From assembly GCF_049075655.1 (NCBI RefSeq), contig NZ_CP157522.1, forward strand, positions 1,408,001-1,472,000: a DNA stretch of 64,000 nucleotides. The letters run 5' to 3'. Position 1 is the stretch's first letter. The number at the start of each line of letters is the position of its first letter. Positions 453 to 63,944 of the stretch are shown piece after piece. The stretch comes from Methanothermococcus sp. Ax23 (GTDB lineage: Archaea > AGJL01 > Methanococci > Methanococcales > Methanococcaceae). The notes beneath the pieces are model-generated. The model searched no databases, had not been told where the DNA came from, and worked only from the letters and a program-made list of their open reading frames with translations. The translations under genes were made by a program, and so were the position numbers.

Positions 453-839
453 ATGGATTTATTTCATTCAAAATATAAAACACTAAAATACAATCGAGAT
501 ATGGTAATTAAAATAAGCGGTGAGCTCTTCCCAGATGAGCTCTGTGAAAGATGTGGTAGGTGTTGCATAGTAAATGTTTTTAAGGATTCGGACGGCGTTC
601 CTGTAATAATCTACTGTGAGCATTTTGATAAAGAAACGAAACTATGTAGAATATACTACGACAGATTTAAAAAAGAAAAAACCTGCCTATCCATGATGGA
701 AGCAATAATGGCTCAGGCGTTGCCTAAGGACTGCCCTTATGTAAAAAATTTAAAAAACTACATAGAACCGAGATGCTATGAACTGTTAAGGAGCTATGAA
801 AAAACAATGAAAAAAGAAATAACCGAAGGGGAAGAGTAA
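453..839 (+). CDS. YkgJ-like cysteine-cluster (CxxCxxCC) protein
   Basis: CERCGRCC...CEHFD...LCRIY...C pattern. Confidence 0.7.
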   Translation: MDLFHSKYKTLKYNRDMVIKISGELFPDELCERCGRCCIVNVFKDSDGVPVIIYCEHFDKETKLCRIYYDRFKKEKTCLSMMEAIMAQALPKDCPYVKNLKNYIEPRCYELLRSYEKTMKKEITEGEE

Positions 840-843
840 TAAT

Positions 844-1578
844 TTATATACTCGTAAGATACCCCCTGAGCTCGTCAATAGTCATTCTCTCCTTTGCATG
901 TTCTATTGGTATGATGTATATGAATTTTGGTTTATGGGGCTCCCCTTTTAACCCCAATATTATTACATCAACTTCTGGTTTATTATCATACAATCGTATA
1001 ATTTCATTTATTGGATAGGATTTCTTATAAACGGGATAAACTAATTTATCATTATAATACAGTAAATTATTTTCAAATTTAAGCCCCTTTTCTATCAAGT
1101 ATGTAATGAACCCTTTTGTTTCTGAATCTTCTGGAATAATCTTAATACCATCTTCTTCAATTGCTATTGGAGGTATTTCTTTTATCATATTATTGTCTTT
1201 ATCATCTTTATTATTATCTTTTACAGATATTGTTAATTTGCTTTCTTCTGGCTTTTGTCCTTTCTTTTTATTTTGTATTCCCTGTTTTTTCTCCTTTTCG
1301 GATTCTATTGAAATGGATTTTGCAAAATGTATTTTTACCTCTCCGTTTTGTGATTCATTCTTTATTTTTATTTTCTTCTTATTAATATTCTTTATAAATT
1401 CTTTAATAGATTTTTTAAACTTTCTATATCCTAAATAAATCAATATCAATAATACTGCTCCGATGAATAGGGGCGATAGAAGTATTGCCAAAATCATTAG
1501 TAAAGTGAGCAGTAATAATATAGCAATAATCCCAGAAACCCCATCTAATCGATATACTTTAAACATATTATCACACAT
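844..1578 (-). CDS. Hypothetical membrane-anchored protein
   Basis: N-terminal hydrophobic hairpin, charged linker, soluble C-terminal domain. Confidence 0.6.
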   Translation of the reverse strand: MCDNMFKVYRLDGVSGIIAILLLLTLLMILAILLSPLFIGAVLLILIYLGYRKFKKSIKEFIKNINKKKIKIKNESQNGEVKIHFAKSISIESEKEKKQGIQNKKKGQKPEESKLTISVKDNNKDDKDNNMIKEIPPIAIEEDGIKIIPEDSETKGFITYLIEKGLKFENNLLYYNDKLVYPVYKKSYPINEIIRLYDNKPEVDVIILGLKGEPHKPKFIYIIPIEHAKERMTIDELRGYLTSI

Positions 1579-1605
1579 TAACTTAATATTTATATTTATA
1601 TAAAT

Positions 1606-2580
1606 CTAAAACCACGATTCAAGAGTGGTTTGGCTTTTTTTCTTATTGACCATTTTTTCCAGTTTTTTAATAGATGGCATAATTCTATCCTCTGAAAAAT
1701 CATTCTCTTCAATTAAAAATTCTTTTAATCCTTCAATGTCGGGAGCTCCCAATTTCAAATCATAATCATCAGTTATTTTTGGATTTTTAAATATATTTTT
1801 TATCACTTCATAGTTATCAATATCCTTTATATACTCTTCCATTTTATTGTTTTTTACTATATCTAATGCTTTTTTAGGACCAATTCCCTTAATGCCCCCC
1901 ATGTTATAATCCGTTCCAATCAATATTGCCATATCTATGAGATTATCAAGTGATATATTTAGAGCTCCTAAAACTTCATCCAATTCAATTAACTCCACTG
2001 GTTTGTTTGATGCCGTGATGTTTCTAACAGTTCTCGGAGCTCCGTATAATAGGGCATCGTAATCCTGACTTACAACCGCATAGGCATCTCCTTTTTTTAC
2101 CATGTATGAGCACTGTGCCTCTCCTTCTGATGGTGCATTTATGTAAGGAATTCCCATTAAATCTAAAAGCTTTTTTGAATTTTCAACAACCTTTGGTTCT
2201 AAATAATTGATTCTTTTTGCATATTTCTGCATGTCTTCTACATTCCCTTCCTCTTTTGCCTTTATATAGTCATCCAGTGCTTTTTCCTTTACCTTTTTTC
2301 TTTCCTCTCTTGTTTTAGTTTTTAATTCCGGCGGTTTTCCATCAAATACCCACACCGGCGTAATGTCATTTTCAAGCATATATACATTCTTATAAAATAT
2401 ACCGTTGTATGTTGAAGTGATTTCCCCTTTTGAATTCCTAAGGGGGCTTCCATCCCTTAACCTTATACTTGATAGAAATTGATATAATATGTTCATGGAA
2501 TCAATTGCTATGGTTTTATTCTTTAAATCCTTTAACGATATTTCTTTTTTTGGGATTAATTCATTAAACTGCACTCCCAT
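1606..2580 (-). CDS. fen: Flap endonuclease 1
   Basis: MGVQF start after GGTGA RBS; VFDG, APSEGEAQ, SQDYD, GTDYN, GIGPK motifs; C-terminal PIP box QTTLESWF. Confidence 0.97.
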   Translation of the reverse strand: MGVQFNELIPKKEISLKDLKNKTIAIDSMNILYQFLSSIRLRDGSPLRNSKGEITSTYNGIFYKNVYMLENDITPVWVFDGKPPELKTKTREERKKVKEKALDDYIKAKEEGNVEDMQKYAKRINYLEPKVVENSKKLLDLMGIPYINAPSEGEAQCSYMVKKGDAYAVVSQDYDALLYGAPRTVRNITASNKPVELIELDEVLGALNISLDNLIDMAILIGTDYNMGGIKGIGPKKALDIVKNNKMEEYIKDIDNYEVIKNIFKNPKITDDYDLKLGAPDIEGLKEFLIEENDFSEDRIMPSIKKLEKMVNKKKSQTTLESWF

Positions 2581-2773
2581 TTTATTCACCAAGATGTTTG
2601 TTAAATTCATAAAAATATGGTTTTTTGATTATTATCAGTAGTAAATTATAATTAAATTATAACATAACCTAAATTTCGTTTAAATTTCTTATTTTTTCCT
2701 TTAAATAGCATACTGAGCTCTAAATGTATGATAAAAATATTATAAATTATTATATTATTATTTATACTCATCA

Positions 2774-4027
2774 TTATATAATTATCTTCCCATTCATTAA
2801 CAAAGGCGGTGAAATAAGCTTTCCACGCTGTTCTACCCTATCCAATGGAATGGCATCTTTAAGAATTTCAAATATGTTTCCAGAAAGCATACCTTTTTTA
2901 ACTGGTATTTTTTCACCGTTTTTTACTATGTAGCTGTTGCTTATTTCAACTGAAAAGTCCCCGGTAATAGGATTTGAAGTATGGCATCCAATAAGCCCAT
3001 TTATATATAAATATTCGTCAAAATTATCGATTTTTTCAACTGGTTCTATTATAAAGTTTGAAGCTGAAACACTTGGCAAACTGCTGTATCCTCTCATTCC
3101 GTTTCCTGTGGATTCCTTTCCTTCGATATTCGCCCTTTTTATGTCATATAAATAGTTCTTTAAAACACCATCTTCCACAAGAACAGTTCTTTTTGTTGGT
3201 GTTCCTTCACCATCAACTTTGGCAGAATATAAACCATTGTCCAGAGCTCCGTCATCAATGATATTAATGTTCTCCCCAAATATTTCTTCTCCAATTTTTC
3301 CAGCAAGAACAGACCTGTTTCTCTGGACATTCTCAGCATTGAAGGATGGTATAAGCGTATATCCTAAAAGAGAACTTAACGCCCTTGTGGTTAATACAAT
3401 ATTTCCTTCGTATTCGGTTTTAATGCTCTTTGGTAGTGTCAGTAGTTCTTTAACGGTATTTGCTATTTCTTCAACATTAAATTTATAGGTTCTTGTTAAA
3501 TAATCATAAGCTGTTTCGTTGTCTTTTATTCCAGAAATTGATGCTGAATAGTGTGTAAATTCCTCTTCAACATCCAATCCTTTTGAATTTACTATTCTAT
3601 TGTATTCATAGGATTTACTTACGCCTCCGCCTGTAATGGTAATGCCACTTTCCGCCAATATATCTTTCATGGTGATTAAATCATCTATAAGCTCTTTTTC
3701 ATCCATATTTATAATATCTTTGTAAAACATCCCCTTTGGATTTGGATATTTTTCTGCGAGCTCCGGGAAGTTGGTATATTCATCGGGAACAAGGTTTTCC
3801 ATAGCTTTATAAATTACCTTTTCATTTTCTTCCGATGAAAATGCAAAGCCAATTTTTTTATCCTTTAATACCCTTACACCAATGCCGAAATCCTTATTTT
3901 CTTCCACACTGTCTAAACTATCTCCATCTAAATCTGCACTTGTGCTGTCTGATTTTGATAAAAAAATATCTACTTCAAAACCGTTTTTTTCTCCGATTTT
4001 TAATATTTTATCTATTAAATGTTCCAT
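2774..4027 (-). CDS. TldD/PmbA family protein
   Basis: DGEGTP, GVLKNYL, STGNG, NPITGDFS motifs. Confidence 0.9.
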   Translation of the reverse strand: MEHLIDKILKIGEKNGFEVDIFLSKSDSTSADLDGDSLDSVEENKDFGIGVRVLKDKKIGFAFSSEENEKVIYKAMENLVPDEYTNFPELAEKYPNPKGMFYKDIINMDEKELIDDLITMKDILAESGITITGGGVSKSYEYNRIVNSKGLDVEEEFTHYSASISGIKDNETAYDYLTRTYKFNVEEIANTVKELLTLPKSIKTEYEGNIVLTTRALSSLLGYTLIPSFNAENVQRNRSVLAGKIGEEIFGENINIIDDGALDNGLYSAKVDGEGTPTKRTVLVEDGVLKNYLYDIKRANIEGKESTGNGMRGYSSLPSVSASNFIIEPVEKIDNFDEYLYINGLIGCHTSNPITGDFSVEISNSYIVKNGEKIPVKKGMLSGNIFEILKDAIPLDRVEQRGKLISPPLLMNGKIII

Positions 4028-4110
4028 AATTACACCTAAAAATCTTTTAAAAAATAAAAAAGAAAAAATAAAATTTTTATAAAAAATAATAAATAAAGTA
4101 TTAATAAAAA

Positions 4111-5361
4111 TTATTCAAATACAAACTCAATTTCTGACAGTCTTCTTTTTACTTCATTTAATATTCTGTCTTCTTCTTCCTCTGATACTTCTCCATCTTT
4201 AAATGCTGGGAAACATGCCGCTAATCTTACAAAGCTTCCTGCATCATCCCATGGAACTGTTGAAATTAGCTTTTCTTTTATTAAATACTGTGAGAACTCC
4301 TCAGCGTTGTTGAATACGATGCCGTCCTTTGTTCCTTTTGGTATTTTTAAGTATAGATAGAATGTTCCGCCCGGCATTTTAGCATCAAATCCTAATTCAT
4401 TGAATATCTCTACCATCTTTTTTAATCTTCTTTCGTATTTCTGTCTTGTTCTTTCGGTGATTTCTGGATGCTTTAAACAGTATATTCCTGCCTTTTGAAT
4501 TGGTATAAACTGACCACTATCGAAATTATCCTTAACTGTTGCAAAACCTTTTACTATTAACTCGTTTCCAACTACAAATGCCAATCTCCAACCTGTCATG
4601 TTGTATGCCTTTGAGAAACTGTGGATTTCCACACCAACATCCTTTGCACCATCTACTGATAAAAATGATAATGGCTTACCGTTGTAGGTGAGAGCTCCGT
4701 AAGCTGCATCCTGAACAACAATTATGTTGTTTTCTTTTGCAAATTCAACAACTTCCTTGTAAAATTCCACAGTTGCCTGAGCTCCGGTGGGGTTGTTTGG
4801 GTAGTTTAAGTATAATATTTTTGCCCTCTTTTTTACGTCCTCTGGGATGCTTTCTAAATCTGGTAAAAATCCATTTTCTTCAAGCAATGGGAGTTTATAA
4901 ACTTCTCCACCATACCATTCTGTGTGTGTGGCAGTTACTGGATAACCTGGAACAGTCATAAGTGTAATATCTCCCGGATTTATGAAAACTGATGTAATGT
5001 ATGCCAATGCTGGTTTTGAGCCAATTGAGTGTATTACTTCATTTACTGGGTCAATACCTTTAACGCCATATACATTTTCCATATATTCAACAACAGCATC
5101 CTTTAACTCTTGAATTCCGTTGTCTGCGTATCCTCTGTTTTCGTGTTTTTTCGCCTCTTCATATAATGTTTCTATTACTTCTGGGTCTGCCATTTCGTCA
5201 GGTTCCCCAACTCCCATGTCTATCAATTCAACATCTGGAAACCTTTTTTTTGCTTCCATCTTTGCTCTTTTTATCTTTTCAAACTTGTAAATTACATCCT
5301 CTTTACCGAAATTTTTTCCTCCAATTCTCTCAGCAAATAGATTTTGAATATAGCTTTCCAT
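4111..5361 (-). CDS. dapL: LL-diaminopimelate aminotransferase
   Basis: Class I PLP motifs NYPNNPTG, DAAY, SFSKAYNMTGWR; N-terminus FAERIGG typical of DapL2. Confidence 0.88.
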   Translation of the reverse strand: MESYIQNLFAERIGGKNFGKEDVIYKFEKIKRAKMEAKKRFPDVELIDMGVGEPDEMADPEVIETLYEEAKKHENRGYADNGIQELKDAVVEYMENVYGVKGIDPVNEVIHSIGSKPALAYITSVFINPGDITLMTVPGYPVTATHTEWYGGEVYKLPLLEENGFLPDLESIPEDVKKRAKILYLNYPNNPTGAQATVEFYKEVVEFAKENNIIVVQDAAYGALTYNGKPLSFLSVDGAKDVGVEIHSFSKAYNMTGWRLAFVVGNELIVKGFATVKDNFDSGQFIPIQKAGIYCLKHPEITERTRQKYERRLKKMVEIFNELGFDAKMPGGTFYLYLKIPKGTKDGIVFNNAEEFSQYLIKEKLISTVPWDDAGSFVRLAACFPAFKDGEVSEEEEDRILNEVKRRLSEIEFVFE

Positions 5362-5529
5362 ATTAACACCTTATTTTAATTTTATTATAGGATTTGTTAT
5401 GTTATTTTATTAATTATATTATTTTTTATTAATTTTACTATTCTTATAATATTATATTTCTATTTTTTTATGTTGTATTTAATTATATATTTATTTATAA
5501 AATTTAAATATCATCATTGTTTTATTATA

Positions 5530-6571
5530 ACCTTAGTTCCCATCAAACATATAACTATATAAATGTAGTAGCAATAATCCAATAAAAAAGGAGATAAAAA
5601 TATGTTTATGTTTCCATTTTTAGCAAGTTGGATAAAGTGTAGTAGTAATAATCTAATAAAAAAGGAGATAAAAATGAAAAAATCAAAGGTTCCTAATATT
5701 AAGCGTTTGATTCAAATTATGCGTTCCAAATTTTATCCAATTATAAGGAGGTATGAATCACCATACCTCCGCAGAGAAATTATATCGCTCTTGGACTTAA
5801 TAATCTTTTCGGTTTTATGTATGATATACTTCTCAGGAGTATATAAGAGAGGGTACGAAATTTTAATAGATGCTTTTGAATTATTTCCAAAAATAAGATA
5901 TAACAAACTGGTTGAACGGATAAATAGGTATGAATCTTTATTATTTAAAATTCAAAAAACATTTCTGAATAAGAACTGCCTATTGTTTATAGATACGATT
6001 CCAATTGAAACTAAGCAGATTATAAGAAAGAACAGGCATGAAAAAATTGGATACTCAGAAATCATTAAAAAAGGGGTGCAGTTGGATACAATTCTTCAAA
6101 AAAACGCTGGTATTTTGGATATAAAGCTACCGTTATTACAGACGAGGCTCACTTGTATCTACTGTATATTACACCTGCCAATCAGCATGATTTAGATATC
6201 TTAAAAGAAAACCACAAAGAATTTATTAAAGAATTCAGTTATTGCAGTATTATAGGAGATAAGGGTTATATCTCCGAGTATTTTAAAAACCAGTTAAGAC
6301 ATAACCATGTCTATTTAGACAGTATAAAACGAAGAAATATGCTTAAATCCTTCACAGAAAAGATAAAATACCGTAGATTAAATAAGTTAAGAAGGATAAT
6401 TGAAACAAACTTCTCAAAGTTTGTTGAGAAGTTTCCAAAACATATTAGGGCAGTAAGTAAGAATGGTTTAAGTGTTAAACTCTTACTCTTCACAATTGCT
6501 TATAATATTGAAATATTAAATGAAGTTAATTTATATTAATAAATATTTAAGTATGTGATGGGAACTACGGT
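5530..6571 (+). mobile_element. IS982-family insertion sequence
   Basis: Terminal IRs ACCTTAGTTCCCATCA / ACCGTAGTTCCCATCA (15/16), 7-bp target duplication TATTATA (5523-5529, 6572-6578), ~1 kb. Confidence 0.85.
5674..6539 (+). pseudogene. IS982 DDE transposase split by a -1 frameshift near 6067-6076
   Basis: IDTIP in frame 1; GYNSSKKRWYFGYK, ANQHD, GDKGY, RRIIETNFS in the -1 frame; junction at AAAAAAGGGG. Confidence 0.8.
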
Positions 6572-6688
6572 TATTATATTAATTGTAGTTATACCGCACA
6601 TATAATTTTTTTATAATTTTTTTATAATTTGTATTCTTGTATTATAATCTTGTATTATAATTAATATAATATTAATATCGGTGAAATT

Positions 6689-8122
6689 ATGAAGATTGTA
6701 GTCGTAGGTGGGGGAACATCGGGTTTGTTATCCGCCCTAGCACTTGAAAAGAAAGGTCATGATGTAATAGTCCTTGAAAAAGATAAAATTGGCGGATTAT
6801 GTAGAAGCGAGCATATAGATGGTTATACTGTTGATATTGGAGTTCATGCCATTACTATGTTAAATGATGGACCGTTGATAAGGTTGTTAAAAAAATATTC
6901 AAAATATCTTCCAAATTTTAGACCTTATGGGGATTATTATATCAGAACTGATAAATTACATAATATACCTGTGTCTATGCAGGAATGGACAACCACCCCA
7001 ATAGTCCCAAACAGGGATAAGATTTTAATTACCACAAAAATAATAGATTTGATGACAAGTGGTTTTTCAAAGGAAACTTCTGTTTATGATGTAATTAAGG
7101 ATATGAATTTAAGCAAAACATCAATTGATTTTTTTGATACAATATGTTATTTTTTAAGTGGGGAAGATGCTAAAAAAACACCACTGTGGAGATTATTCAC
7201 CGGTGCAGGATATATACCAGAAGATGACATATTGCCTTTTATATATGAAGATTTAAAAATAAACCCATTAAAAACCGTATTATTCAAAAAATTTAACAGA
7301 AATAAAATTATGGACATATTAAACGCTGGTTTTTTATCATCCATAAAAAGTGGTTCTAAAAGATATATCAATAAATTTATAAATAAAAACAGATACTGGA
7401 CTCAGGGTTATCCTCTCGGAGGAGTTCAATCCATTTGTAATTGTATATTGTATTCCTTAGATAAAACTGATATAAAACAGGAAGAAGTTAAAAAAATCAT
7501 TGAAACGAGCAATAAAAATAATAAAAATAATAAAAATGGCTATATTGTTAAAACCAATAAAAACAGCTATTATGCGGATGTTGTGATATATTCCGCTCCA
7601 TCTAGATTACTCCCAGATATTGCAAAAATACCTGAAATTCAAAAAAATAAACACAATTTAAAAAATATAAAATTCACAGAATCATTAACTGTTTGGATAG
7701 GTCATGAAGAGAACCCATTCCCATATATGGGTTCAGAGGTTTGGATAGATTATCCGTGCTGGGCAACATGCACCTCAAATTACGATAAAAGTTTAGCACC
7801 AGATGGAAAACATTTGCTGGGATTCTCTTTTGTTAATACAAAAAAAGAGGATGCTTTGAATATTATAGAAAATAAATTAAATCTAAATCTAAGTAAAGCG
7901 GATATGATTCATTTTCAGGAGCATATTCCTGAGCAGGCATCCTGTGCAGTTAATCAATTCTTTGTTTATCCAAAAGTGAGGGATAATTTTTATGTAGTTG
8001 GAACAGATGCCGACCCAAGAAGTATGGGTATTACAAGAGCTGCATATTCTGTTGAGGTAATGTTATCAGAGTTCGAAAATACATTCAGCAAAAATAACAA
8101 TAATGATAAAGAACAGCAATAA
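6689..8122 (+). CDS. FAD-dependent oxidoreductase (phytoene desaturase/amine oxidase family)
   Basis: GGGTSG Rossmann motif, LEKDKIGG, YPLGG, SLAPDGKHL. Confidence 0.85.
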   Translation: MKIVVVGGGTSGLLSALALEKKGHDVIVLEKDKIGGLCRSEHIDGYTVDIGVHAITMLNDGPLIRLLKKYSKYLPNFRPYGDYYIRTDKLHNIPVSMQEWTTTPIVPNRDKILITTKIIDLMTSGFSKETSVYDVIKDMNLSKTSIDFFDTICYFLSGEDAKKTPLWRLFTGAGYIPEDDILPFIYEDLKINPLKTVLFKKFNRNKIMDILNAGFLSSIKSGSKRYINKFINKNRYWTQGYPLGGVQSICNCILYSLDKTDIKQEEVKKIIETSNKNNKNNKNGYIVKTNKNSYYADVVIYSAPSRLLPDIAKIPEIQKNKHNLKNIKFTESLTVWIGHEENPFPYMGSEVWIDYPCWATCTSNYDKSLAPDGKHLLGFSFVNTKKEDALNIIENKLNLNLSKADMIHFQEHIPEQASCAVNQFFVYPKVRDNFYVVGTDADPRSMGITRAAYSVEVMLSEFENTFSKNNNNDKEQQ

Positions 8123-8234
8123 TAACGAAAATAACAAGGATAAAATTAAATTAGATAAAAAATTAATATAAAATAAAATATAAAAAATAAATAAAAGATA
8201 AAAAAGAAAAAGAAAAAATAAAAACGGTGATATT

Positions 8235-8786
8235 GTGAAATTATTAGAGGATACCTTAAAATCATGCCCAATTGTAAAAAGAGGAATATATAACTACTTC
8301 ATACATCCAATATCTGATGGAGTTCCTGTGATGAATCCTCAGTTATTGAGGGAAGTGGCAACAAAAATTATAAAAATTGCCGATATGGATGTCGATAAAA
8401 TAGTTACGGCTGAAGCCATGGGAATACCAATTGTAACTGCAATATCTCTATATACAGATATTCCTTATGTAATCATGAGGAAAAGGGAATATTTACTTGA
8501 AGGGGAAATACCTGTTCATCAGGAGACTGGATACAGTAAAGGCGAATTATATTTAAATGGAATAAATAAGGGGGATAAAGTTTTGATAATTGATGATGTC
8601 CTATCCACAGGCGGAACAATGGTTGCAATAATCAAAGCCTTGGAAAGAGCAGGAGCTCACATAAAAGATATTGTTTGTGTAATTGAAAGAGGAAACGGTA
8701 AGGAAGAGGTAAAGGAAAAAACAGGTTATGACATAAAAACTCTTGTTAAAATAGATGTAGTAGATGGAAAAGTTATGATTTTATAA
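8235..8786 (+). CDS. hpt: Hypoxanthine/guanine phosphoribosyltransferase (archaeal)
   Basis: [19 protein letters not shown] motif [11 protein letters not shown]. Confidence 0.88.
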
Positions 8787-8829
8787 AATGATTAAATAAT
8801 AATTAAAATAAATTATTTTTTGGGATTCT

Positions 8830-9546
8830 ATGGACACTATGAGGATATTAGACATAGATTTGGATTTTTTCCTAAACAAAATAGTGTTTTGGAAAAAGGA
8901 CAATAAACGATTAAATGAAAAAGAATATATCCCCTGGAAAAAAGAAAAATTAACTGACTTTTTAGAAAATCAGTGTGGATTATCAACAAATAATAAAATC
9001 AAAGGGAGAATCATTAAAAAACATCATGAGGCATTTTACTTTTGGAAGGAGCTCATACACAAAAACGAACTTACCACACCATTTGAGGTTGTGCATGTTG
9101 ATGCCCATGCTGACTTGGGATTGGGGGATATGTCATATAAATATATCATGGAGGAGCTCCTTCATAAACCTGTAAATGAAAGGGATAGTCCTAATCCAAA
9201 ACACATTTGTGAAGGAAATTATTTGGCATTTTCAATTGCAAATAGGTGGATAGGTAAATTAACATACATCACCCATCCAAAAGGTGGAAATGACCTTTTA
9301 AAAGAGCATTTTATGAATTACGACATAAACAGTGGATACATACAAATGAAGAAAATGAAGGATGCAGATAATCCTGACAGCATCCTATCTCTTGAACCAA
9401 AGGTAAAGTTTGAAAAAATAGCCCTTGCAGATTTTAAGGATACGGGGGATTTTAACTATATTGTGTTGGCAATTTCACCGCGATATACTCCAAAACGGGC
9501 AGATGCACTTATACCAATATTTAAAAAATATATTGATGAAATATAA
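8830..9546 (+). CDS. UPF0489-like protein
   Basis: LDIDLDFF, HHEAF, VHVDAHADL, SPRYTP motifs. Confidence 0.75.
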   Translation: MDTMRILDIDLDFFLNKIVFWKKDNKRLNEKEYIPWKKEKLTDFLENQCGLSTNNKIKGRIIKKHHEAFYFWKELIHKNELTTPFEVVHVDAHADLGLGDMSYKYIMEELLHKPVNERDSPNPKHICEGNYLAFSIANRWIGKLTYITHPKGGNDLLKEHFMNYDINSGYIQMKKMKDADNPDSILSLEPKVKFEKIALADFKDTGDFNYIVLAISPRYTPKRADALIPIFKKYIDEI

Positions 9547-9681
9547 GATTAATATAATTTAATAGGTTTATAACTTAATAGTTTTAATATTTATTTATAA
9601 TTTTAATAATTATTTTGGCATGCAATTTAAAAAGATAAAAGAAAATATTTAATAAAAAATTAAAGTTAAATTTGTGATACT

Positions 9682-10296
9682 ATGACATTGAATATAAATC
9701 CAACAAAGATAATCTGCGTAGGTTTAAATTATATAGACCATGCGAAAGAATTGAATATGGAAATTCCAGAAGAGCCAATTATATTCCTAAAACCAACATC
9801 TTCAATAATATATAACAACGATAAAATAATTATGCCGAAACAATCAAATAGGGTGGATTATGAGGTAGAGCTCGCAGTGGTAATTGGTAAAAAATGTAAA
9901 AATGTAAAAAAAGAAGATGCACTAAATTACATTAAGGGATACACCATACTAAACGACATAACAGCAAGAGACCTTCAAGAAAAGGATGGACAATGGACTA
10001 GGGCAAAATCATTTGACACATTCTGCCCAATAGGTCCAAAAATAGTTAAAAACATCGATTCACATAATCTAAACATTCAGTTAAAAGTGAATGGGGAAAT
10101 AAAACAAAAGTCTAACACAAAAAATATGATTTTTACCGTTGAAGAATTGATAGAATTCATATCCTCCATTATGACATTATATCCCGATGATGTAATTTCA
10201 ACGGGAACTCCTCCAGGTGTCGGAAAATTAAATAATGGAGATATTGTTGAGGCAGAAATTGAAAATATAGGAATTTTGAGAAATTATGTAGTCTGA
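9682..10296 (+). CDS. Fumarylacetoacetate hydrolase family protein
   Basis: CVGLNYIDH, DYEVEL, NDITARD, KSFDTFCP, TGTPPGVG. Confidence 0.93.
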   Translation: MTLNINPTKIICVGLNYIDHAKELNMEIPEEPIIFLKPTSSIIYNNDKIIMPKQSNRVDYEVELAVVIGKKCKNVKKEDALNYIKGYTILNDITARDLQEKDGQWTRAKSFDTFCPIGPKIVKNIDSHNLNIQLKVNGEIKQKSNTKNMIFTVEELIEFISSIMTLYPDDVISTGTPPGVGKLNNGDIVEAEIENIGILRNYVV

Positions 10297-10380
10297 CCCA
10301 CTCCAACGAATAAATTCGTTGGGTTCATTTGTGGAGTTTAACCTTACAATAGTGGCCAAGCCCCTGCCCTTACTCATTAA
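10293..10380 (-). mobile_element. Isolated right-end fragment of family-1 IS200/IS605-type MITE
   Basis: Reverse strand GGGCTTGGCCACT...GAACCCAACGAATTTATTCGTTGGAGTGGGTCAG matches right ends at 10684, 15541, 49328; inner boundary approximate. Confidence 0.8.
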
Positions 10381-10401
10381 TGTATTAAATAATTTATTTA
10401 C

Positions 10402-10684
10402 GATAAACCGCCGAGAAAGCCAACGACTTTAGTCGTTGGATGAAAGGCGCACATTATATAATCGTAAATAGTAAAATATAAATATGTGAATTCCCATAGT
10501 AAGTAATGCTGCCAGTCCAAGTTCTAATGGGTAGGGTTAGTGAAAACTCTATCGCTGGTAGTGTTTGGAGATTCAAAAGGTAGCCCTGAACCCATTAATG
10601 GGTAGGGGTAGTGGGCTTGGCCACCCTTGTAGGGTTAAACCCTGCTAAAAGAACCCCACGACTTCAGTCGTGGGAGTAGGTCAG
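10402..10684 (+). mobile_element. Family-1 non-autonomous IS200/IS605 derivative (copy A, 283 bp)
   Basis: TTAC|GATAAACCGCCGAGAAAG + subterminal hairpin; right end GAAC + hairpin + GGTCAG; no ORF; homologous to 15541-15915 and 49011-49328. Confidence 0.88.
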
Positions 10685-10968
10685 AATATCCTTTTGAATT
10701 ATCGTTATTTTCCACAGTTTTTAGAATATCCTCCCTACTAACATAATCATGCCAAACCATCGGAGTTCATCAGTAATATATCACCATTAGTTAAATCCCA
10801 TTCGTAATCATCTACTTTAAATTCATCCATGCCTCTTTTAAAATTCTTTTATCTCTTCAATTGATAATTTTCATTGTATTTTTCCGTTATAATGTTATTT
10901 AGAGTACCTATTGCCATTTCTAATGTAACTTCTCCCGAATTATGCCCTCCAACACCATATGCAACTGC

Positions 10969-11274
10969 CGTTTAAAACTGTTTAGTTTTTTGTGAGTATT
11001 TGTGAGTGTATGGGAGCATTTAGTTTTCGAAATGTTTATATAGTATTTTCATGCATAGTTTATAGTGTCAATCTAATCAACCCCAAGACTTTCCTAAACC
11101 TCTTTTAAACATGTTAAAACATCCAACAAATTGTCGAATTGATGGGTGGAGCTGGGGTCCCCACGACAGGGGAGGAGACCGATGACATGCTCCCAATGAA
11201 CCCAGAGGGATATAAGGTTGATGACGCCCAAGTCCAATGTGGGCATTTACTCACCAACGCTCACATTGGACAGA
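10969..11274 (+). mobile_element. Family-2 306-bp non-autonomous element, probably IS607-derived (copy 1)
   Basis: Homologous to 32108-32413; no terminal IR or TSD; GTGAG-type repeats at ~10-bp spacing at the left end and inverted at the right end; C-run junctions. Confidence 0.8.
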
Positions 11275-11584
11275 CCCCAATATGTAAGTATTATTTATTT
11301 TTCTAATTAGAATGTTATCTTCGTTATTTTCTCTATTTCCTTTGTGGGATATGCCGTAGGCATTATCTTCCTTAAAAGCAATTTCATTACGGTCAAAAGT
11401 TTCAATAAGTTCAATTTCTGGAATTTCTATTTTAGGGTTATAGTTGATATATCTCCTTCATTGTTTGTTGTGATTTCTTCGTTGAGTATGTTGTTAGTAT
11501 CCTTAATTTCATCAATATCAAAATGTTCCTACAATAATAAAGTGGGTCAAAGAATATAAAAAAATATAAGCTTAAAGGAATTGG

Positions 11585-15915: not shown

Positions 15916-15941
15916 GTAAATTGCACTATTTTATAATTTTA

Positions 15942-16190
15942 AAATATCTCCCAACATTAACACCATATCTTCATCCTTGGCAGACGCCATGTCCGATGGC
16001 TAACCCATGTTGGGAGTGATATAGGATTTTTGCTGTATCGTGCTCATCCTAAGGGAGCTCTCCCTATCACACGACTCGCCCAAAAATCCATTTTAAAAAA
16101 ATATACCTTCAATTTCGAACCCGCTATCATTGCAAGGTCACCCATGAGCTCCATGTAGGTCGGTTTATTGAAGGTATATTATAATATATT
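15942..16190 (-). ncRNA. Three-hairpin H/ACA pseudouridylation guide RNA (HgcG/Pab40-like)
   Basis: Three stems (CCTTCAAT/ATTGAAGG, GGATTTTTG/CAAAAATCC, CTCCCAACAT/ATGTTGGGAG) with internal pockets, ATGA K-turn/K-loop motifs and trailing ANA-like triplets; TATA-like run at ~16198-16207. Confidence 0.72.
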
Positions 16191-16255
16191 AATCTAGTAT
16201 ATATATTTTTGTATGTAATTTTTGTATGGTTATTTTAGAAAAAAATTTTTTTTAT

Positions 16256-22568: not shown

Positions 22569-22714
22569 AAAAATCCCAATGCTCCAGTTTGTTATTATTA
22601 TTTAAATTTCATTTATTATATTAATTGTAGCATAGATTATATTATATCGTATAGAGCTCTGCATATAAGCAAAGTGTCCAACTACATCTGTCATTATATT
22701 CCACATATAAATTA

Positions 22715-28975: not shown

Positions 28976-29091
28976 CGTATCACCAACATGTAAAATTAAA
29001 ATATAATATATCAATTAAAAGATGATTAAAATAGTAATAAATTATATCATTTACTATATCTATTACACACTTATAAAATTATGGTGAAATT

Positions 29092-40027: not shown

Positions 40028-40993
40028 TTAAATTTTCCATTTATGAACATATCCCCCAAATTTAAATTCATCACTATCGATATAATGCCCATCATCTATT
40101 ACTTTTCCAATTTTTATAGATTTGGTGCTTAGCTTCCGGAGCTCATCCTCAACATCATTATATTTTTTAGTTGTAAATAGGAGCTCGAACTCTTCACCAC
40201 TATTTAAAGCAACATCTATTGGATTTAAATCAAATCTATCGCAAAATTCCATCACATCCTTTGGGAGAGTATTTAAAAGTTTTTTTGATGAGATTTCAAA
40301 GTTCCCAACATAGTATAAATCCTTTCCAAGACCATCAGATATATCACAGCAGGAATTAACATATTTATTTATGGCAATCCCCTCTTTAACCCTTGCTCTT
40401 GGTTCAGATAATTTTTTTATAATATCCGAATATTCATTTAAAAGATTTTTAAAAACCCTTTTATTAATTATTCCTTTATTCTTCATTTCAATGATTTTCA
40501 ATGCACAATAAACCCTTCCAACATCGTTTGTAATCGCTATATCGTCCCCCACTTCACCACCTCTATATATTGGATTATCTGTAATTCCAAAGGCAGTCCC
40601 ACATAATGCCAGTTCTTTTGATTTATTCGTATCTCCTCCAACAACGGGGCATTCATATTCTTTTGCTATGAAATCCATCCCCTTTGTAAGTTCTTCTATA
40701 AATTCCTTTTTTGGATGATTAAAACCCATTGAGACTACAATTCCCAATGGTTTAGCACACATTGCCGCTATATCTGATACATTTGCCGTAATTACCCTCA
40801 TACCAATTTGGAATGGTGTTAAAATCTCTGGAAAATGTGTGGATTTAAACATCATATCCGTTGTAATTGTTAAATACTGATTTCCCAATTTAAAAACCGC
40901 ACAATCATCCCCAATGGTTTTTACTGCCTTTCCAGTATATTTTAAATTACTATATATTGTTTTTATGATATCCAGTTCATTCATTATATCCAT
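40028..40993 (-). CDS. thiL: Thiamine-monophosphate kinase
   Basis: IGDDCA, NVSDIAAM, GGDT, DISDGL, GEEFELL. Confidence 0.95.
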   Translation of the reverse strand: MDIMNELDIIKTIYSNLKYTGKAVKTIGDDCAVFKLGNQYLTITTDMMFKSTHFPEILTPFQIGMRVITANVSDIAAMCAKPLGIVVSMGFNHPKKEFIEELTKGMDFIAKEYECPVVGGDTNKSKELALCGTAFGITDNPIYRGGEVGDDIAITNDVGRVYCALKIIEMKNKGIINKRVFKNLLNEYSDIIKKLSEPRARVKEGIAINKYVNSCCDISDGLGKDLYYVGNFEISSKKLLNTLPKDVMEFCDRFDLNPIDVALNSGEEFELLFTTKKYNDVEDELRKLSTKSIKIGKVIDDGHYIDSDEFKFGGYVHKWKI

Positions 40994-41070
40994 GAGCTCA
41001 CCTAAATTTTAAATCATCTAAATTTTAAATTTTCAATAACTATATATATTAGTAATACATAATATATTTT

Positions 41071-41128
41071 GGTGGATGATGACCGGAGTAGCTTCTGATT
41101 TATGATGATAGATGGGCGAGCTGACACC
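41071..41128 (+). ncRNA. C/D-box methylation guide sRNA
   Basis: GGTG-gATGATGA-12nt-CTGA-ttt-ATGATGA-12nt-CTGA-CACC; upstream TATA run, downstream T-tract. Confidence 0.92.
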
Positions 41129-59859: not shown

Positions 59860-60292
59860 TAAATCACCAGTGTGTATAAAATGGGCTAATTATATAATTA
59901 TCGATAATTTCATCAAACTTAAAATCGTGTATAAAAGAGACAAAGAAATTATTTAAAAAATAGATGATAATTTTAATATATATCATTAACCATAGAATAT
60001 TATTATATTAAGTTATATTCATAATATTGTTGATTAATTATACTTATTAATGGTCCATTAATAACTTTTGGTAATGCTTACACTGGACACTAATAACAAT
60101 CAATAAAAAATTAGTGGTGTTTCCAATTTTGCATATACTAGTAATTGATTCTAATAATCTCCATACTACGAATTATTGAATTATAGCAAATGTTTAACAC
60201 TGCCACAATTTGATTAATATTAATATATCATATTGTGGTATATTAATATTATAGTATATTATATGCTCGCAAATTTTAATAGGGAGATATTT

Positions 60293-63200
60293 ATGTATGA
60301 TGATATACCGCAAGAAGAACTTTCAAAATTATTTAAAGAATATTGTGAATTGGATTGGAAAAAGAAATCTGAGGCAGCCCGAATATTGGGACATATTAAC
60401 GACATTAATGAGCTTAAGAAAATACAAGAGCAAATTATAAAATTAGCCCAGGATAAAAACTTAGCTACAAGAGTAAATCTAATGAACTCTATAAAGAAGC
60501 TCATTTTAGACCACCGCATTATTAATGAGGATATATTTGTTTTACTCTATTTTTGGGCCAATTCCTTCAACACCACAACATCAGAATTTGCCAAACAAAT
60601 TATAAACTCCTTAAATGTGAATGTGATTGTCGACTACATCCTCTCATTATCCATAAAACTTTATTCTTCCAATCCTTATGAAGTAGCATATGCCATGGCA
60701 TCCTTAGGATTGATATCAACAGTTACCCCTGAACACTTAACAAATACCCTCCCTGAGATTGTATTAATGTCCAACGGTCATAAATACAAGATACTTCAAG
60801 TGCTTGCTATTGAAATACTTGAAGAATTTAAAACATTGGATAAACATTATCTAATTAATTCGTATTTTATGGTATATCTAGAATACCATAAAAACGTTTT
60901 TGATACTACTGGTTTAGATAATAAATCCCTGAAATTCCTTAAATTTTTATATAATACGTATTTCAAAGAAACTGCTTCCAGAGAAGATATATTAAAAATC
61001 ATAAATGCTCTGGAAAATAGGGAACCTTTTGTAAAATCCATTATTATGGCTACATTATATACTCATGCCGATGTTTTATATCAGATATTAAAGGAGGATA
61101 AAAAATTAAGTAATTACTTGATAGATGAAACAATAAGCTCTTTTAAAAATCCTGACCGGATGATTAGGCTTTCATCCATGTTTTTGTTTATAAAGTTGAT
61201 ATTCTTTGATAAAATATATATTAAAAATGAATACTTAGATATGTTTTTTGACAAAATCCTTGAAAATTTCAATGATAAATATATTGTAAAGGGATTTTCT
61301 CTTGAAATATTATACTACCTATTAAAAAATACAGAATCGAAATATATTAAAAAGAAAGTATCTGAGGTTATTGATAAAATTGATTTAAAAAGTATAATGA
61401 ATGAAGGGCATTTATGCTATTATAATGGGTTATATTTGGCATATGAATTAAAAAAATATGAATGTTTCTCAGCAACATCTTCTCCTAATTTTAATATGGG
61501 TTTTATAGAGGAATTCAAAGATATGGATATATTGGAATTCCAGAAGCTGATTAAATCCCTATATATTGATACAAAAAGAAAAGGCTGGATAAATAGATAC
61601 TACGCTGGAAAATATTTAGGTAATGCAATATATGCAAGACCCGGTTATGCATCCAATATGTTTGATATAATCGATAATATGTTGTATGACAACACATATT
61701 TGGTAAGAAATATGGGAATATGGTTATTGAGAATGATAGTTGAGTTAAACAATGAGACTCCAAATAATCTTATTATTAAATCTACATCTTTGTTTGATGA
61801 TTGGTATTTCGGAAACCGAATCGAATATTTATTATTTTATAATATATTAATAGAGAATTACCCAAATAGTCTTGAAAAAGAAGAAATCAGAAAAAATATT
61901 ATTTCAGCAATTATGACAAAATATTTAACAGATAAACATAGATTTGTAAAAGATATTAGCAAAAACTTATTGGATAAATTATTGATTAAATTTCCAGAAT
62001 ATAAGGAATTTTTAGATTATCATAACATATCTATCAAAGAACGTTTTGATTTAATTGAAAAATATTTAAAATTTCCTGAAACGAGGAAAGCCACCATATT
62101 GCTCGCCAAAATTGAACTAAAGCGACACATCAAAAAGGGCGAGGATAACTCCATTAGAGTGATTTTAAAAGTCTTTGAGAATAATATCTACGAAGAAATA
62201 ATATATATTCTTCCAGAGATCATTGCATTGAAAGGAAAATCTGAAATAGCTAAAAAGATTGTTGAGGATTACATATCAAAATACCCCACATTACCAAAAG
62301 AGATGGATGATATTACATATCGTTTTATTGAGGAACCCATATTTAAAATAAGAAATACTCACTTAAAAAAATTATTAAGATTTATCAAGGAAGGATTGAT
62401 AATAAGCGATAAGTTATTAAACAGAGTTAAAGAATTAATAATATATGAACGTGTAGTTGAGGAAAATATCAATCTTGCATTATCAATACTTGAAGAAATA
62501 AATGAACCTGAAAGTGTAGCCATAATTAAAGAAAAAAGGGAATTAATAGAACATCTGAAAAAGAATCCATTAAATCTTGATAAAATCGAAAATGGAGATA
62601 TTGAATGGGAAAAATACCATATCAAAATAACATATATCCCAACAAAAGATGTTATTAAAATTTTTGGAAGCGACGACATTAAAGATATTGTAAAAACGAT
62701 TATTCACATATTAAATCTTGAAGAAGCAGTAATTTTGAAGATAATGGTCATGGATTTGTTAATTGAAGAGATTTCTAAAAATGGGAAGTTATTGGACGAA
62801 TTATTGTCAAATAATATATATGACATACTATCAAAATTAGCATTATTGGATGGTTATGGATTATTATCAGAAAAAGCATTAGTATTACTTGAAGGAATAG
62901 CATTGAAAAAAGATAACTGGCTGAAAAATAATCTATTAAACAATCCTGGGAAAAAACCCACATTAAAAATTATAAGAAAATTTTTAAGACATAATACATC
63001 AATCTATGTTAAATTGGAAATTATTGAGGTTTTGGAATACCTGCTAAAAAATGACATTATTATATGTGATAAACACACTGCATCTGCATTTATATACACT
63101 CTTGTGAATATTGGTAACGACCAGCCATGGATAGTATTTAAAAAAGCTGTGGATGTTATTGGTTCCTGCCAGTATATACGAGAAGATAAGAAACTTTTAA

Positions 63201-63361
63201 GTAAAATCGTTAAAAAAATTATGGAATATATTGAGGCATCCACATGTCCTGGTGTTAAAGAATATCTAATGAAAGTTCTTGAATCATTAAATGTAGAAAA
63301 AAAACTTGATAAAGATATTGTCGAAGAATATATTGAAGAATACAGTAAATTAAAAAAATAA
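60293..63361 (+). CDS. Large HEAT/ARM-repeat-like alpha-helical protein (~1020 aa)
   Basis: Repeated W/Y-xxR-xx-A-xx-LG and D-xx-VR-type segments; GGGAGA RBS; no catalytic motif seen. Confidence 0.65.
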   Translation: MYDDIPQEELSKLFKEYCELDWKKKSEAARILGHINDINELKKIQEQIIKLAQDKNLATRVNLMNSIKKLILDHRIINEDIFVLLYFWANSFNTTTSEFAKQIINSLNVNVIVDYILSLSIKLYSSNPYEVAYAMASLGLISTVTPEHLTNTLPEIVLMSNGHKYKILQVLAIEILEEFKTLDKHYLINSYFMVYLEYHKNVFDTTGLDNKSLKFLKFLYNTYFKETASREDILKIINALENREPFVKSIIMATLYTHADVLYQILKEDKKLSNYLIDETISSFKNPDRMIRLSSMFLFIKLIFFDKIYIKNEYLDMFFDKILENFNDKYIVKGFSLEILYYLLKNTESKYIKKKVSEVIDKIDLKSIMNEGHLCYYNGLYLAYELKKYECFSATSSPNFNMGFIEEFKDMDILEFQKLIKSLYIDTKRKGWINRYYAGKYLGNAIYARPGYASNMFDIIDNMLYDNTYLVRNMGIWLLRMIVELNNETPNNLIIKSTSLFDDWYFGNRIEYLLFYNILIENYPNSLEKEEIRKNIISAIMTKYLTDKHRFVKDISKNLLDKLLIKFPEYKEFLDYHNISIKERFDLIEKYLKFPETRKATILLAKIELKRHIKKGEDNSIRVILKVFENNIYEEIIYILPEIIALKGKSEIAKKIVEDYISKYPTLPKEMDDITYRFIEEPIFKIRNTHLKKLLRFIKEGLIISDKLLNRVKELIIYERVVEENINLALSILEEINEPESVAIIKEKRELIEHLKKNPLNLDKIENGDIEWEKYHIKITYIPTKDVIKIFGSDDIKDIVKTIIHILNLEEAVILKIMVMDLLIEEISKNGKLLDELLSNNIYDILSKLALLDGYGLLSEKALVLLEGIALKKDNWLKNNLLNNPGKKPTLKIIRKFLRHNTSIYVKLEIIEVLEYLLKNDIIICDKHTASAFIYTLVNIGNDQPWIVFKKAVDVIGSCQYIREDKKLLSKIVKKIMEYIEASTCPGVKEYLMKVLESLNVEKKLDKDIVEEYIEEYSKLKK

Positions 63362-63386
63362 TTAAAAAATAAAATTCATATTTAAA

Positions 63387-63944
63387 TTATCTATTAACAA
63401 CATTATCTAGGAAATATTTATAAACTTTATACCCCTCATCCGAGAGCTCCGGATGGAATGCTATTGCCATGTATTTACCTTCCCTTACTCCAACAATATT
63501 ATCTCCCTCTTTTGCTATGATTTCAACAGCATCATCTAAAAGTTCATCTACAACAGGAGCTCTGATAAATACCGCATGAACTTTTTCGCCATCTAACTCA
63601 ATTTCTTCTTCAAAACTTTCCCTCTGGCTACCATAGGCGTTTCTTTTAATGGTTATATTCATTAACTCTAAAAGTGGCTGTTCCCTTCCAGTTCCTTTTG
63701 AAAGCAATACCATACCTGCACAAGTTCCCAATATTGGAAAATCAGAGTTTTTTAAAGCTTCAATAAAGCCATATTTTTTCATAAGTTTCCCCATTGTGGT
63801 GCTTTCTCCACCTGGAATAATAAGTGCATCAATATCATCTAAATCAGCAGGTGTTCTAATCCTTTTTGGCGTGCAATTTATCCTTTTAACCATTTCTTCA
63901 TGCTCTTCAATATCTCCCTGAATACCTAAAATACCTATATTCAT
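63387..63944 (-). CDS. pdxT: PLP synthase glutaminase subunit
   Basis: QGD, PGGESTT, GTCAG, RNAYG, FIRAP, FHPEL. Confidence 0.97.

Follow-up and report, generated by a model that had tools for sequence, protein, structure and literature searches.

A highly iterated GAGCTC palindrome in Methanothermococcus sp. Ax23 and its tentative link to a DpdA cassette

The hexamer GAGCTC is a highly iterated palindrome in the genome of the archaeon Methanothermococcus sp. Ax23, where it is almost certainly a word driven at the DNA level and an archaeal counterpart of the cyanobacterial palindrome HIP1. The word was analyzed in a 64-kb stretch of DNA (assembly GCF_049075655.1, contig NZ_CP157522.1, positions 1,408,001–1,472,000; hereafter the window) with a G+C content of 28–33%, in the whole genome to which the window belongs (G000; 1,670,680 bases in two contigs, the chromosome C1 and the 7,732-bp contig C2; the window corresponds to C1:1408001-1472000) and in a sample of 40 genomes of the order, 13 of which belong to the genus of G000. 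A preliminary description of the window, made from its letters alone, had reported about 90 copies of GAGCTC between positions 522 and 63450, compared with roughly 3–5 expected. The window contains 92 copies. Dinucleotide-preserving shuffles of the window (100 replicates) yielded 3.77 ± 1.78 copies with a maximum of 10, and none of them reached 92. The first copy is located at position 522, as described, and the last copy, which the description had missed, is located at 63557 and ends at 63562.

The enrichment of GAGCTC extends over the entire genome. G000 carries 2,089 copies (2,085 on the chromosome and four on C2), corresponding to a density of 1,251 per Mb. GAGCTC ranks first of the 4,096 hexamers by the observed-to-expected ratio (O/E), with a value of 19.7 under a first-order Markov model of the whole genome, and the runner-up palindrome, ATATAT, reaches just 1.8. 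The ratio is 4.9 at third order and only 1.6 at fourth order, because the fourth-order model already holds GAGCT and AGCTC. The 20-fold enrichment in the host is contrary to the avoidance that is usual for the targets of restriction–modification (R-M) systems. The small contig C2, which is taken as plasmid-like, contains its four copies at 0.52 per kb, well above the 0.06 per kb that the first-order model predicts for the genome.

The excess is observed in all three coding frames and between genes. Genes were called crudely as open reading frames (ORFs) of at least 80 amino acids from the first ATG, selected greedily by length (1,571 genes, 84% of the chromosome), and the intergenic class on these calls takes in small or RNA genes that the calls miss. 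The chromosomal sites are divided into 1,073 sites in the frame GAG-CTC, 613 in nGA-GCT-Cnn, 220 in nnG-AGC-TCn and 179 between genes. Thirty synonymous-codon shuffles, which retain each protein and the codon usage of each gene, generated 82, 84 and 23 sites in frames 0, 1 and 2 (maxima of 97, 104 and 31), compared with 1,074, 613 and 220 observed sites, and the corresponding enrichments are 13-, 7- and 10-fold. The 179 intergenic sites compare with 6.3 expected at first order (28-fold) or 33 at third order, and GAGCTC is the top hexamer in this DNA too. In the window, 56 sites are in the frame GAG-CTC (Glu-Leu), 23 in nGA-GCT-Cnn and seven in nnG-AGC-TCn, and six are outside the crude ORFs (at 2715, 16055, 16146, 22654, 29535 and 40994), in agreement with the several frames and the non-coding places that had been named for the window.

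The excess in three frames and in intergenic DNA indicates that codon usage cannot explain GAGCTC, as the preliminary description had argued, and the synonymous shuffles together with the intergenic excess refute codon usage or codon-pair bias as the sole cause. A dicodon-preserving shuffle, which had been put forward as the refuting test, retains the frame-0 count by construction and is unusable as a null. Translational selection on the GAG-CTC codon pair, or another bias at the coding level, would suit frame 0, which holds about half of the sites: 1,074 of the 3,869 Glu-Leu pairs are spelled GAG-CTC, 16-fold over the 65 expected from codon usage, and 1,074 of the 2,768 CTC codons directly follow GAG. 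Such selection is extremely improbable in view of the enrichment in frames 1 and 2 and between genes and of the perfectly palindromic form of the word.

The sequences that flank the sites in G000 are nearly uninformative. The spacing between sites is near exponential with a mean of 797 bp, and bin counts are Poisson-like with a variance-to-mean ratio of 1.03–1.2. GAGCTC is therefore a dispersed six-letter word and no repeat element, and the same two properties rule out a repeat element or miniature inverted-repeat transposable element (MITE) that bears it. Very short spacings (20 bp or less) are scarcer than expected (27 versus 52), and neither even spacing nor periodicity was seen when the sites of G000 were inspected for them. 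Thirteen sites in G000 directly adjoin a start codon, and GGTGAGCTCATG is found 14 times.

Five of the 40 genomes are rich in GAGCTC (hereafter rich genomes). Four of them, G000 (2,089 copies), G012 (2,070), G010 (1,645) and G003 (1,321; 90% complete), belong to one genus, and the fifth, G037 (1,515), belongs to another genus of the same family. The rich genomes exhibit densities of 886–1,251 per Mb (944 per Mb in G003), or about one site per 0.8–1.1 kb, and hexamer O/E values of 20–23. GAGCTC was counted directly in 32 of the 40 genomes, and the other eight were classed by their count of the octamer GGAGCTCC alone; the remaining directly counted genomes contain 4–229 GAGCTC sites, and all 35 genomes outside the rich group carry at most 35 copies of GGAGCTCC. 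In two gene trees, the rich genomes of the genus form one clade with a support of 1.0, (G010,(G012,(G000,G003))), and the sister group of this clade (G002, G007 and G008) has only 4–16 sites. G037 is farther from G000 than any congener without the excess (67% versus 72–79% identity in a 793-aa marker), which implies that the rich state arose at least twice or was transferred. The first place among the hexamers and the restriction to particular lineages bear out the HIP1-like genome signal that had been proposed from the window. In the literature, which was mostly open-access text without supplements here and below, over-representation of GAGCTC or GGAGCTCC in Methanococcales was not found described, including in the accessible text of PMC4390886 and PMC4060949.

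The word occurs in two dialects. In G010, the octamer GGAGCTCC is found at 1,259 of the 1,645 sites (77%), with an O/E of 307. Its share elsewhere is 333 of 2,089 sites in G000 (331 of 2,085 on the chromosome), 335 of 2,070 in G012, 184 of 1,321 in G003 and 191 of 1,515 in G037. The octamers of G010 also argue against codon-pair selection, as the palindrome is extended symmetrically and 286 of the 1,259 copies are located between genes, where they are denser than in coding DNA.

Other words of related form were recorded in the same genomes. A mild excess of GGAGCTCC is observed in the sister family (17 genomes, G013–G029), with 16–35 copies per genome versus 0–4 for a reversed control word. 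The congeners G005, G008, G002 and G007, which lack the GAGCTC excess, avoid AGCT in every context. The O/E of AGCT is 0.12 in the covered 1.2 Mb of G005, and AAGCTT occurs 12–33 times in G008, G002 and G007 versus 286 times in G012. The AGCT core is purged in some members of the genus, whereas in others, among them the sister clade of the purgers, it is hyper-abundant. In G000, several palindromes are strongly avoided: GATC (O/E 0.03), GTAC (0.15), GGCC and GCGC (0.19), CTAG (0.21) and ACGT (0.32), all four tested words of the form GTNNAC (GTTAAC, GTATAC, GTCGAC and GTGCAC) and all four tested words of the form CTNNAG (CTGCAG, CTTAAG, CTATAG and CTCGAG). This avoidance suggests long-standing restriction pressure.

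Sites turn over between relatives. Codon alignments paired 1,210 genes of G000 with their counterparts in G010 and 863 with those in the covered part of G005 (1.2 of 1.5 Mb, to which all comparisons with G005 refer). The coding sites of G000 are also sites in G010 in 22–30% of cases and in G005 in 0–1%. A comparison of orthologous codons, which had been suggested for the word at the outset, revealed that relatives without a site carry A+T-rich synonymous pairs, such as GAATTA and GAACTT, at the orthologous place. The Glu-Leu pairs conserved between G000 and G010 comprise 208 with sites in both genomes, 414 with a site in G000 alone, 110 with a site in G010 alone and 1,131 with a site in neither (odds ratio of 5.2).

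The word has also left a footprint in proteins. Aligned tripeptides of the form (R/G)-A-(L/P/H/Q/R) in G000 are spelled with GAGCTC in 516 of 687 cases, and site-bearing tripeptides are less conserved towards G005 than the others (0.46 versus 0.64). Across the 229,556 codons that align between G000, G010 and G005, Glu-Leu is counted 1,934, 1,970 and 1,631 times, respectively (about 20% up versus G005), and Ser-Ser 705, 752 and 583 times. Gly-Ala-Pro, the in-frame translation of GGAGCTCC, is counted 76, 198 and 32 times, a 6-fold increase in G010 versus G005. These shifted peptide counts indicate that GAGCTC has changed proteins.

Gains and losses were resolved between window positions 22500 and 40000. 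Sites are present in G000, G003 and G012 and missing from G010 at ten places, present in all four genomes at five, present in G010 only at five and present in G012 only at four. Gains restricted to G003 were not found in this interval, nor were gains restricted to G000 among its fully covered places. G003 exhibits three losses by a single transition, which together with its lower density hint at decay in G003 alone. The ratio of the one-step variants GAGTTC and GAACTC to GAGCTC is 0.20 in G010, 0.22 in G000, 0.28 in G037 and 0.34 in G003, and is lowest in G012 (0.17). Site creation is directional and ongoing in the rich lineages; it proceeds against the A+T-rich codon preference and partly costs amino-acid changes.

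Young DNA is poorer in the word. G000 genes without a G010 homologue contain 0.82 sites per kb versus 1.47 in shared genes (P 1e-18). Newly acquired DNA had been thought to lack GAGCTC; the strain-specific genes are indeed poorer and are not devoid of it, as 0.82 per kb is approximately 13 times the first-order expectation of 0.06 per kb.

A methyltransferase or nuclease that reads the word was searched for by protein family. Among the 13 genomes that represent the genus, none yielded a C5-cytosine methyltransferase (PF00145) above the cut-off. Enzymes of the PF01555, PF02384 and PF02086 families have a patchy distribution, without any that all rich genomes share; G010 has a single PF01555 enzyme, and G012 has none of this family. 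The recognizable DNA methyltransferases of G000 are all located in strain-specific R-M insertions missing from G010, including the enzyme at 29541–30443 of the window. Vsr-type repair nucleases were absent from the five genomes searched. The RE_SacI family (PF09566) gave no match in 23 genomes, and its model was equally silent in 14 of 14 control genomes. A shared methyltransferase as the reader of GAGCTC is rejected for the four Pfam families, and the link to methyltransferases drawn in the preliminary description found no support.

These results bear on a model modelled on HIP1, in which an orphan methyltransferase would mark GAGCTC or AGCT and methylation-linked biased repair, either Vsr-like or methyl-directed, would convert near-matches into sites. 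According to the accessible text of PMC4390886, cyanobacterial HIP words accompany cognate methyltransferases and are replaced by words of the GGCGCC type where the enzyme set changes. Some methyltransferase is present in each rich genome, and the transition neighbours are depleted in Glu-Leu pairs (GAA-CTC and GAG-CTT at 0.29 and 0.32 of expectation, respectively). Genome-wide, however, the one-step neighbours GAGTTC and GAACTC have an O/E of 1.2, which is no Vsr-like signature, and gains take two to four substitutions with transversions included. Given also the enzyme families that are missing, patchy or confined to insertions, this model is quite improbable.

A screen for genes that are present in G000 and G010 and absent from G005 returned 272 candidates, most of them probably false (0.3 Mb of G005 is uncovered), and requiring that the flanking genes be adjacent in G005 reduced them to 12 loci. 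Ten proteins from six of these loci were annotated via their G010 orthologues, and apart from one cassette they are metabolic or transport proteins. This dpd cassette, which is located outside the window, contains four genes that encode a DUF6884 protein, a UvrD-type helicase, a PD-(D/E)XK nuclease and DpdA, a DNA-guanine transglycosylase (Table 1). The DpdA proteins score 420–443 bits with the NCBIfam model NF041059 (420 in G000; equivalog cut-off of 200) and 402 bits with PADLOC, and the full length of DpdA can be aligned with 7ui4, the structure solved for the Salmonella enzyme (E 1e-82). DUF6884 is the DpdC family, according to the accessible text of bioRxiv 10.1101/2025.02.24.639861. QueC, which is needed for preQ0, is present in five of five genomes tested.

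The distribution of the cassette partly follows that of the word. DpdA is found in four of the 40 genomes, comprising three of the five rich genomes (G000, G010 and G037) and one of the 35 others (G023); a naive Fisher test of the association gives P = 0.004, although related genomes are not independent. The helicase partner accompanies DpdA in G000, G037 and G023 and, with the G010 protein as the query, is not found in G012 or G003. The cassette occupies the same locus, between a kinase-like gene and a PAC2 gene, in G000, G037 and G010, the most basal member of the rich clade, and is cleanly missing from G005, where the flanking genes are adjacent. The four cassette proteins of G000 are 85, 84, 76 and 81% identical to those of G037, 66, 65, 65 and 69% to those of G010 and 49, 47, 46 and 59% to those of G023. 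The identity of 76–85% with G037, versus 67% for the marker, points to an exchange of the cassette between these two lineages. The 6-mer dialect is found with the G000/G037 allele (13–16% of sites are GGAGCTCC), the 8-mer dialect with the G010 allele and no excess with the G023 allele. The form of the word tracks the allele of the cassette, not the species.

On these grounds, GAGCTC may be read by the DpdA cassette as its target, an explanation that gene content and the dialects make plausible and that is held tentatively, as somewhat short of probable. DpdA would replace guanine in DNA by the 7-deazaguanine preQ0 at GAGCTC, and by analogy with the Salmonella enzyme, for which this is reported at CAGCTG, the exchanged base would be the G that precedes C. 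In the accessible text of PMC10164549, the activity of DpdA/B from Salmonella is placed at the PvuII site CAG/CTG, a C has to follow the G that is targeted, a partial motif is stated as CxGCxG, and the modification of bacterial DNA by Dpd amounts to about one per 10^3 nucleotides. Phage DpdA enzymes are reported to read short motifs such as GA or GGC. The Salmonella target resembles the archaeal word in its AGCT core and the modification density is about the site density of the rich genomes, which may count in favour of the DpdA link. The Salmonella Montevideo Dpd system (dpdA-K; 2'-deoxy-preQ0 and dADG in DNA) is similar to the putative archaeal one in having a DpdA orthologue, a DUF6884/DpdC-like partner and a preQ0 pathway, as well as a target with an AGCT core in which G is followed by C, at about one per 10^3 nucleotides (PMC10164549, accessible text). 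It differs in that neither DpdB nor DpdD-K was found in the archaeal cassette, which instead encodes a UvrD-type helicase and a PD-(D/E)XK nuclease.

An extended form of the explanation adds a role for the helicase and nuclease. Modified sites might identify DNA as 'self' to the helicase-nuclease of the cassette, in the way that Chi sites do to RecBCD/AddAB. DNA rich in marked sites, whether resident or from kin, would survive and recombine better, and this advantage would both select for and drive up the density of sites, with young DNA staying poorer. GAGCTC/GGAGCTCC would then be an archaeal DpdA-DpdC recognition site and an epigenetic Chi-like self signal for which the genome, peptide composition included, has been rewritten to about 2,000 copies. 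Chi resembles the proposed signal as a short, host-enriched word that signals 'self' to a helicase-nuclease, and the cassette has a UvrD-family helicase and an AddB/Cas4-like nuclease; it differs in that it is asymmetric and skewed in orientation, bears no modification and is enriched to a much smaller degree. The extended form as a whole is doubtful.

Several observations weigh against a role of the cassette. G012 (99% complete) and G003 (90% complete) are rich, with 2,070 and 1,321 sites, respectively, and have an empty junction at the locus. The cassette could have been lost from these two strains as a defence island that is still carried by the populations of the species. The four sites present only in G012 are gains of two to four substitutions each within about 10 kb, and G012 does not have the appearance of a decaying relic because its ratio of one-step variants is the lowest. 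G023, conversely, has a cassette homologue, yet contains 130 GAGCTC and 300 CAGCTG, the two words to which its test was limited, like its congeners without DpdA. Around relatives of DpdA in other phyla (25 loci of 3–21 kb each), no comparable word was found, while 20-kb controls from the rich genomes were positive in every case (ln P of -88 to -142). The distant loci are short and may be islands, and they thus count against a general link and not against a local one. The cassette genes have 3–4 times the genome-mean site density (18 versus 6.5 in G000 and 16 versus 4.5 in G037), which fits a passenger island that travels among rich genomes at least as well. DpdB, the partner that Salmonella DpdA requires, had no match among the cassette proteins, the only proteins searched for it. 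Targets of the restriction type are normally avoided and not enriched. Public runs offered no modification signal, as the 20 listed runs include no long-read raw data and the sole raw-read run is Illumina. The Chi-like step is pure conjecture by analogy and more speculative than the rest. No over-representation of the target in Dpd hosts is reported in the accessible text of PMC10164549, and the literature covered yielded no report of 7-deazaguanine in genomic DNA from these archaea.

Other features of the cassette region were noted. In G010, a gene of the GmrSD type (modification-dependent restriction) is inserted between the nuclease and DpdA genes (L043:8805-10463, minus strand), and it is not present in the cassettes of G000, G037 and G023. 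A leucyl-tRNA synthetase gene stands beside the cassette (C1:1533223-1536264 in G000; L043:15593-18532 in G010). This gene has close DNA matches in all five rich genomes; the best match in the covered part of G005 is only 23% identical and lies two ORFs from the kinase-like gene, and none was found in G008. The pattern may reflect displacement of the synthetase or may be an artefact that stems from gaps in the data, and the synthetase cannot account for the non-coding sites. Just downstream of DpdA, at C1:1542341-1544175 (equal to L197:7341-9175), lies a stretch with a 322-aa ORF that is unique to G000; the contig depth of this stretch is 5–100 times that of its surroundings in all four runs compared, and it is probably a multi-copy mobile element. 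Contigs from three isolate-type runs are identical to G000 throughout the cassette. One metagenome run contains two joints that would skip the cassette (2481 to 10506 and 2787 to 9732 of L197), which are unreliable with only 21–22 letters on the shorter side.

An alternative explanation is an uptake or recombination signal. In this explanation, a core-encoded DNA-binding component of natural transformation or recombination would read GAGCTC, and fragments with the word would be taken up or recombined in preference to others. The word would thereby spread by molecular drive, and the dpd cassette would be a passenger that passes readily from one genome with the signal to another. The density of 0.9–1.25 per kb, the occurrence in all frames and in intergenic DNA, the peptide footprint, the dialects, the partial sharing of sites and the poverty of young DNA are hallmarks of the DNA uptake sequence (DUS) of Neisseria and other Neisseriaceae and of the uptake signal sequence (USS) of Pasteurellaceae, which likewise occur about once per kb and whose build-up is ascribed to drive and not to a benefit of each site. 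No accessory gene is needed, and the rich genomes G012 and G003 without a cassette, as well as the continuing gains in G012, are accommodated. The cassette identity above that of the marker attests to DNA exchange between rich lineages, and the unusually high number of sites in the cassette that G000 and G037 share through this exchange is expected of DNA on such a route. Nonetheless, known uptake words are asymmetric, non-palindromic and 9–12 nucleotides long, compared with the palindrome here of six nucleotides, or eight in G010, and no difference in a receptor or in competence was found. The patchiness, with sister genomes that are nearly free of AGCT, would require a receptor specificity that was gained twice or transferred. 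The spacing is Poisson-like and no more even than random, and both the match between dialect and cassette allele and the match with the core of the DpdA target are left unexplained. Sequence-specific DNA uptake in archaea was not found described in the literature covered. An uptake or recombination signal is a serious explanation, if on balance somewhat unlikely.

A binding site for a core protein of chromosome organization, repair or replication, maintained by natural selection and with rich and poor states set by allelic change in that protein and not by the presence of a gene, is less likely and rather improbable. Palindromic words of six to eight nucleotides suit a symmetric dimer, the rich genomes are monophyletic within the genus and no accessory gene matches the rich state perfectly. 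Moreover, a presence/absence screen is blind to allelic differences and is weakened by the partial coverage of G005. No candidate protein was found, however, and the selective value per site would be tiny at about 2,000 sites. The same word in a second genus calls for convergence or transfer, and the Poisson-like spacing argues against a need for regular coverage.

The sites and site-free stretches of the window are listed with the cassette genes in Table 1. The three ggtGAGCTCatg start-codon contexts noted earlier are all present. At the first of them (29535), G003, the closest relative, reads GATATT, and at the second (35111) it carries the one-step variant GAACTC. The sites at 16055 and 16146 had been placed in H/ACA hairpins; both sites exist, and the label depends on a match to the H/ACA small RNA HgcG that is sub-threshold (42 bits versus a gathering score of 77; E 5e-10). 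The freedom from GAGCTC that had been noted for the transposase, the TnpB gene, the MITE, the R-M coding regions, the interval 38578–39965 and the 3-kb gene was confirmed throughout, with one site touching the R-M pair: the pair is site-free at 29541–31149, and its sole site, at 31150, is located at the first codons of the convergent ORF. This R-M-like pair stands between a DUF371 gene and a 3-dehydroquinase gene and is found only in G000 and G003. Copies of the MITE-like repeat include 10963–11279 of the window and C1:367228-367544. Singly, the site-free stretches are weak (P(0) of 0.004 to 0.17); pooled over 11,230 bp, they give a P of approximately 1e-7. The window also contains a gene for the tRNA-splicing ligase RtcB (26168–29014, minus strand; 948 aa overall), which is split by an intein that contains a homing-endonuclease domain of the LAGLIDADG type, and a C/D-box small RNA, sR2 (41072–41126, plus strand), above the Rfam gathering score.

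Table 1. GAGCTC sites and site-free stretches of the window, and genes of the dpd cassette. Positions are those of the window unless a contig is given.
Feature	Position	Strand	Details
GAGCTC array	522–63562		92 copies
Intergenic site	2715–2720		outside ORF calls
Site in non-coding DNA	16055–16060		within sub-threshold HgcG match 15940–16230 (-)
Site in non-coding DNA	16146–16151		second site within HgcG-like stretch 15940–16230 (-)
Intergenic site	22654–22659		outside ORF calls
Start-context site	29535–29540	+	spacer between GGTGA ribosome-binding motif and methyltransferase ATG, aggtGAGCTCatg
Start-context site ggtGAGCTCatg	35111–35116	-	793-aa gene 32756–35137
Start-context site ggtGAGCTCatg	40994–40999	-	gene 40028–40993
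Site-free stretch, 3.9 kb	4785–8652		split DDE-transposase ORFs 5602–6539; FAD/NAD-binding oxidoreductase ORF 6689–8122; P(0) = 0.004
Site-free TnpB (OrfB_IS605 / Cas12f-like) gene	16460–17695	+	no site within
R-M-like pair	29541–31159		N4/N6 DNA methyltransferase PF01555 29541–30443 (+); convergent 245-aa ORF, no Pfam match, 30422–31159 (-)
Site-free MITE-like repeat, ~315 bp	32102–32421		at least 9 further genome copies, 85–89% identity
Two site-free ORFs	38578–39965	-	one with GH114-like domain, the other unnamed
Site-free 1,042-aa ORF	60233–63361	+	no Pfam match, 27% G+C, no G010 homologue, P(0) = 0.011
dpd cassette	C1:1537329-1542521 (outside window)		four genes
DUF6884 protein (DpdC family, YaaA-related)			150 aa; 65 bits, weak DpdC and YaaA matches
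UvrD-type helicase			772 aa; dpd cassette
PD-(D/E)XK nuclease (Cas4/AddB-like)			311 aa; dpd cassette
DpdA	C1:1541259-1542521		420 aa; tRNA-guanine transglycosylase (TGT)-fold DNA-guanine transglycosylase family

Cyanobacteria have been known for three decades to carry highly iterated palindromes (HIPs), for which, to our knowledge, there is no agreed mechanism. GAGCTC is a genuine archaeal word of the HIP1 type, and its mechanism is so far hypothetical. Similar to HIP1 (GCGATCGC), it is a short G+C-rich palindrome with copy numbers per Mb in the hundreds to thousands (886–1,251 here), in coding and non-coding DNA, in patchy lineages and with variant words in relatives, such as GGCGCC in Calothrix PCC 7103. 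It differs from HIP1 in that the host is an archaeon of 30–32% G+C, the core is AGCT and not the GATC of HIP1, and no cognate methyltransferase of the four families searched is common to the carriers, the DpdA cassette being the sole correlated modification system. In the accessible text of PMC4390886, HIP1 has densities of 300–2,700 per Mb and O/E values of 55–228.

GAGCTC represents a second, independent instance of a HIP, in archaea. It is young and patchy, and the presence of rich, neutral and AGCT-avoiding genomes within one genus allows its gain, loss and cause to be compared. The two dialects (6-mer and 8-mer) and a concrete four-gene DpdA candidate make the question testable. For these methanogens, the word is a strong marker of native versus recently acquired DNA, and SacI and AluI-type sites are far from random in their genomes. 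Should the DpdA link not hold, the data would nonetheless speak for a drive that is sequence-specific, such as uptake or recombination, and that is not known to have been described in archaea. If the link is true, a base-exchange DNA modification reshapes codon choice, and even protein sequence, across the genome. If the extended form with the Chi-like signal is also true, the cassette would be the first DNA hypermodification system to shape genome-wide word content and would provide a mechanistic model for HIPs in general.

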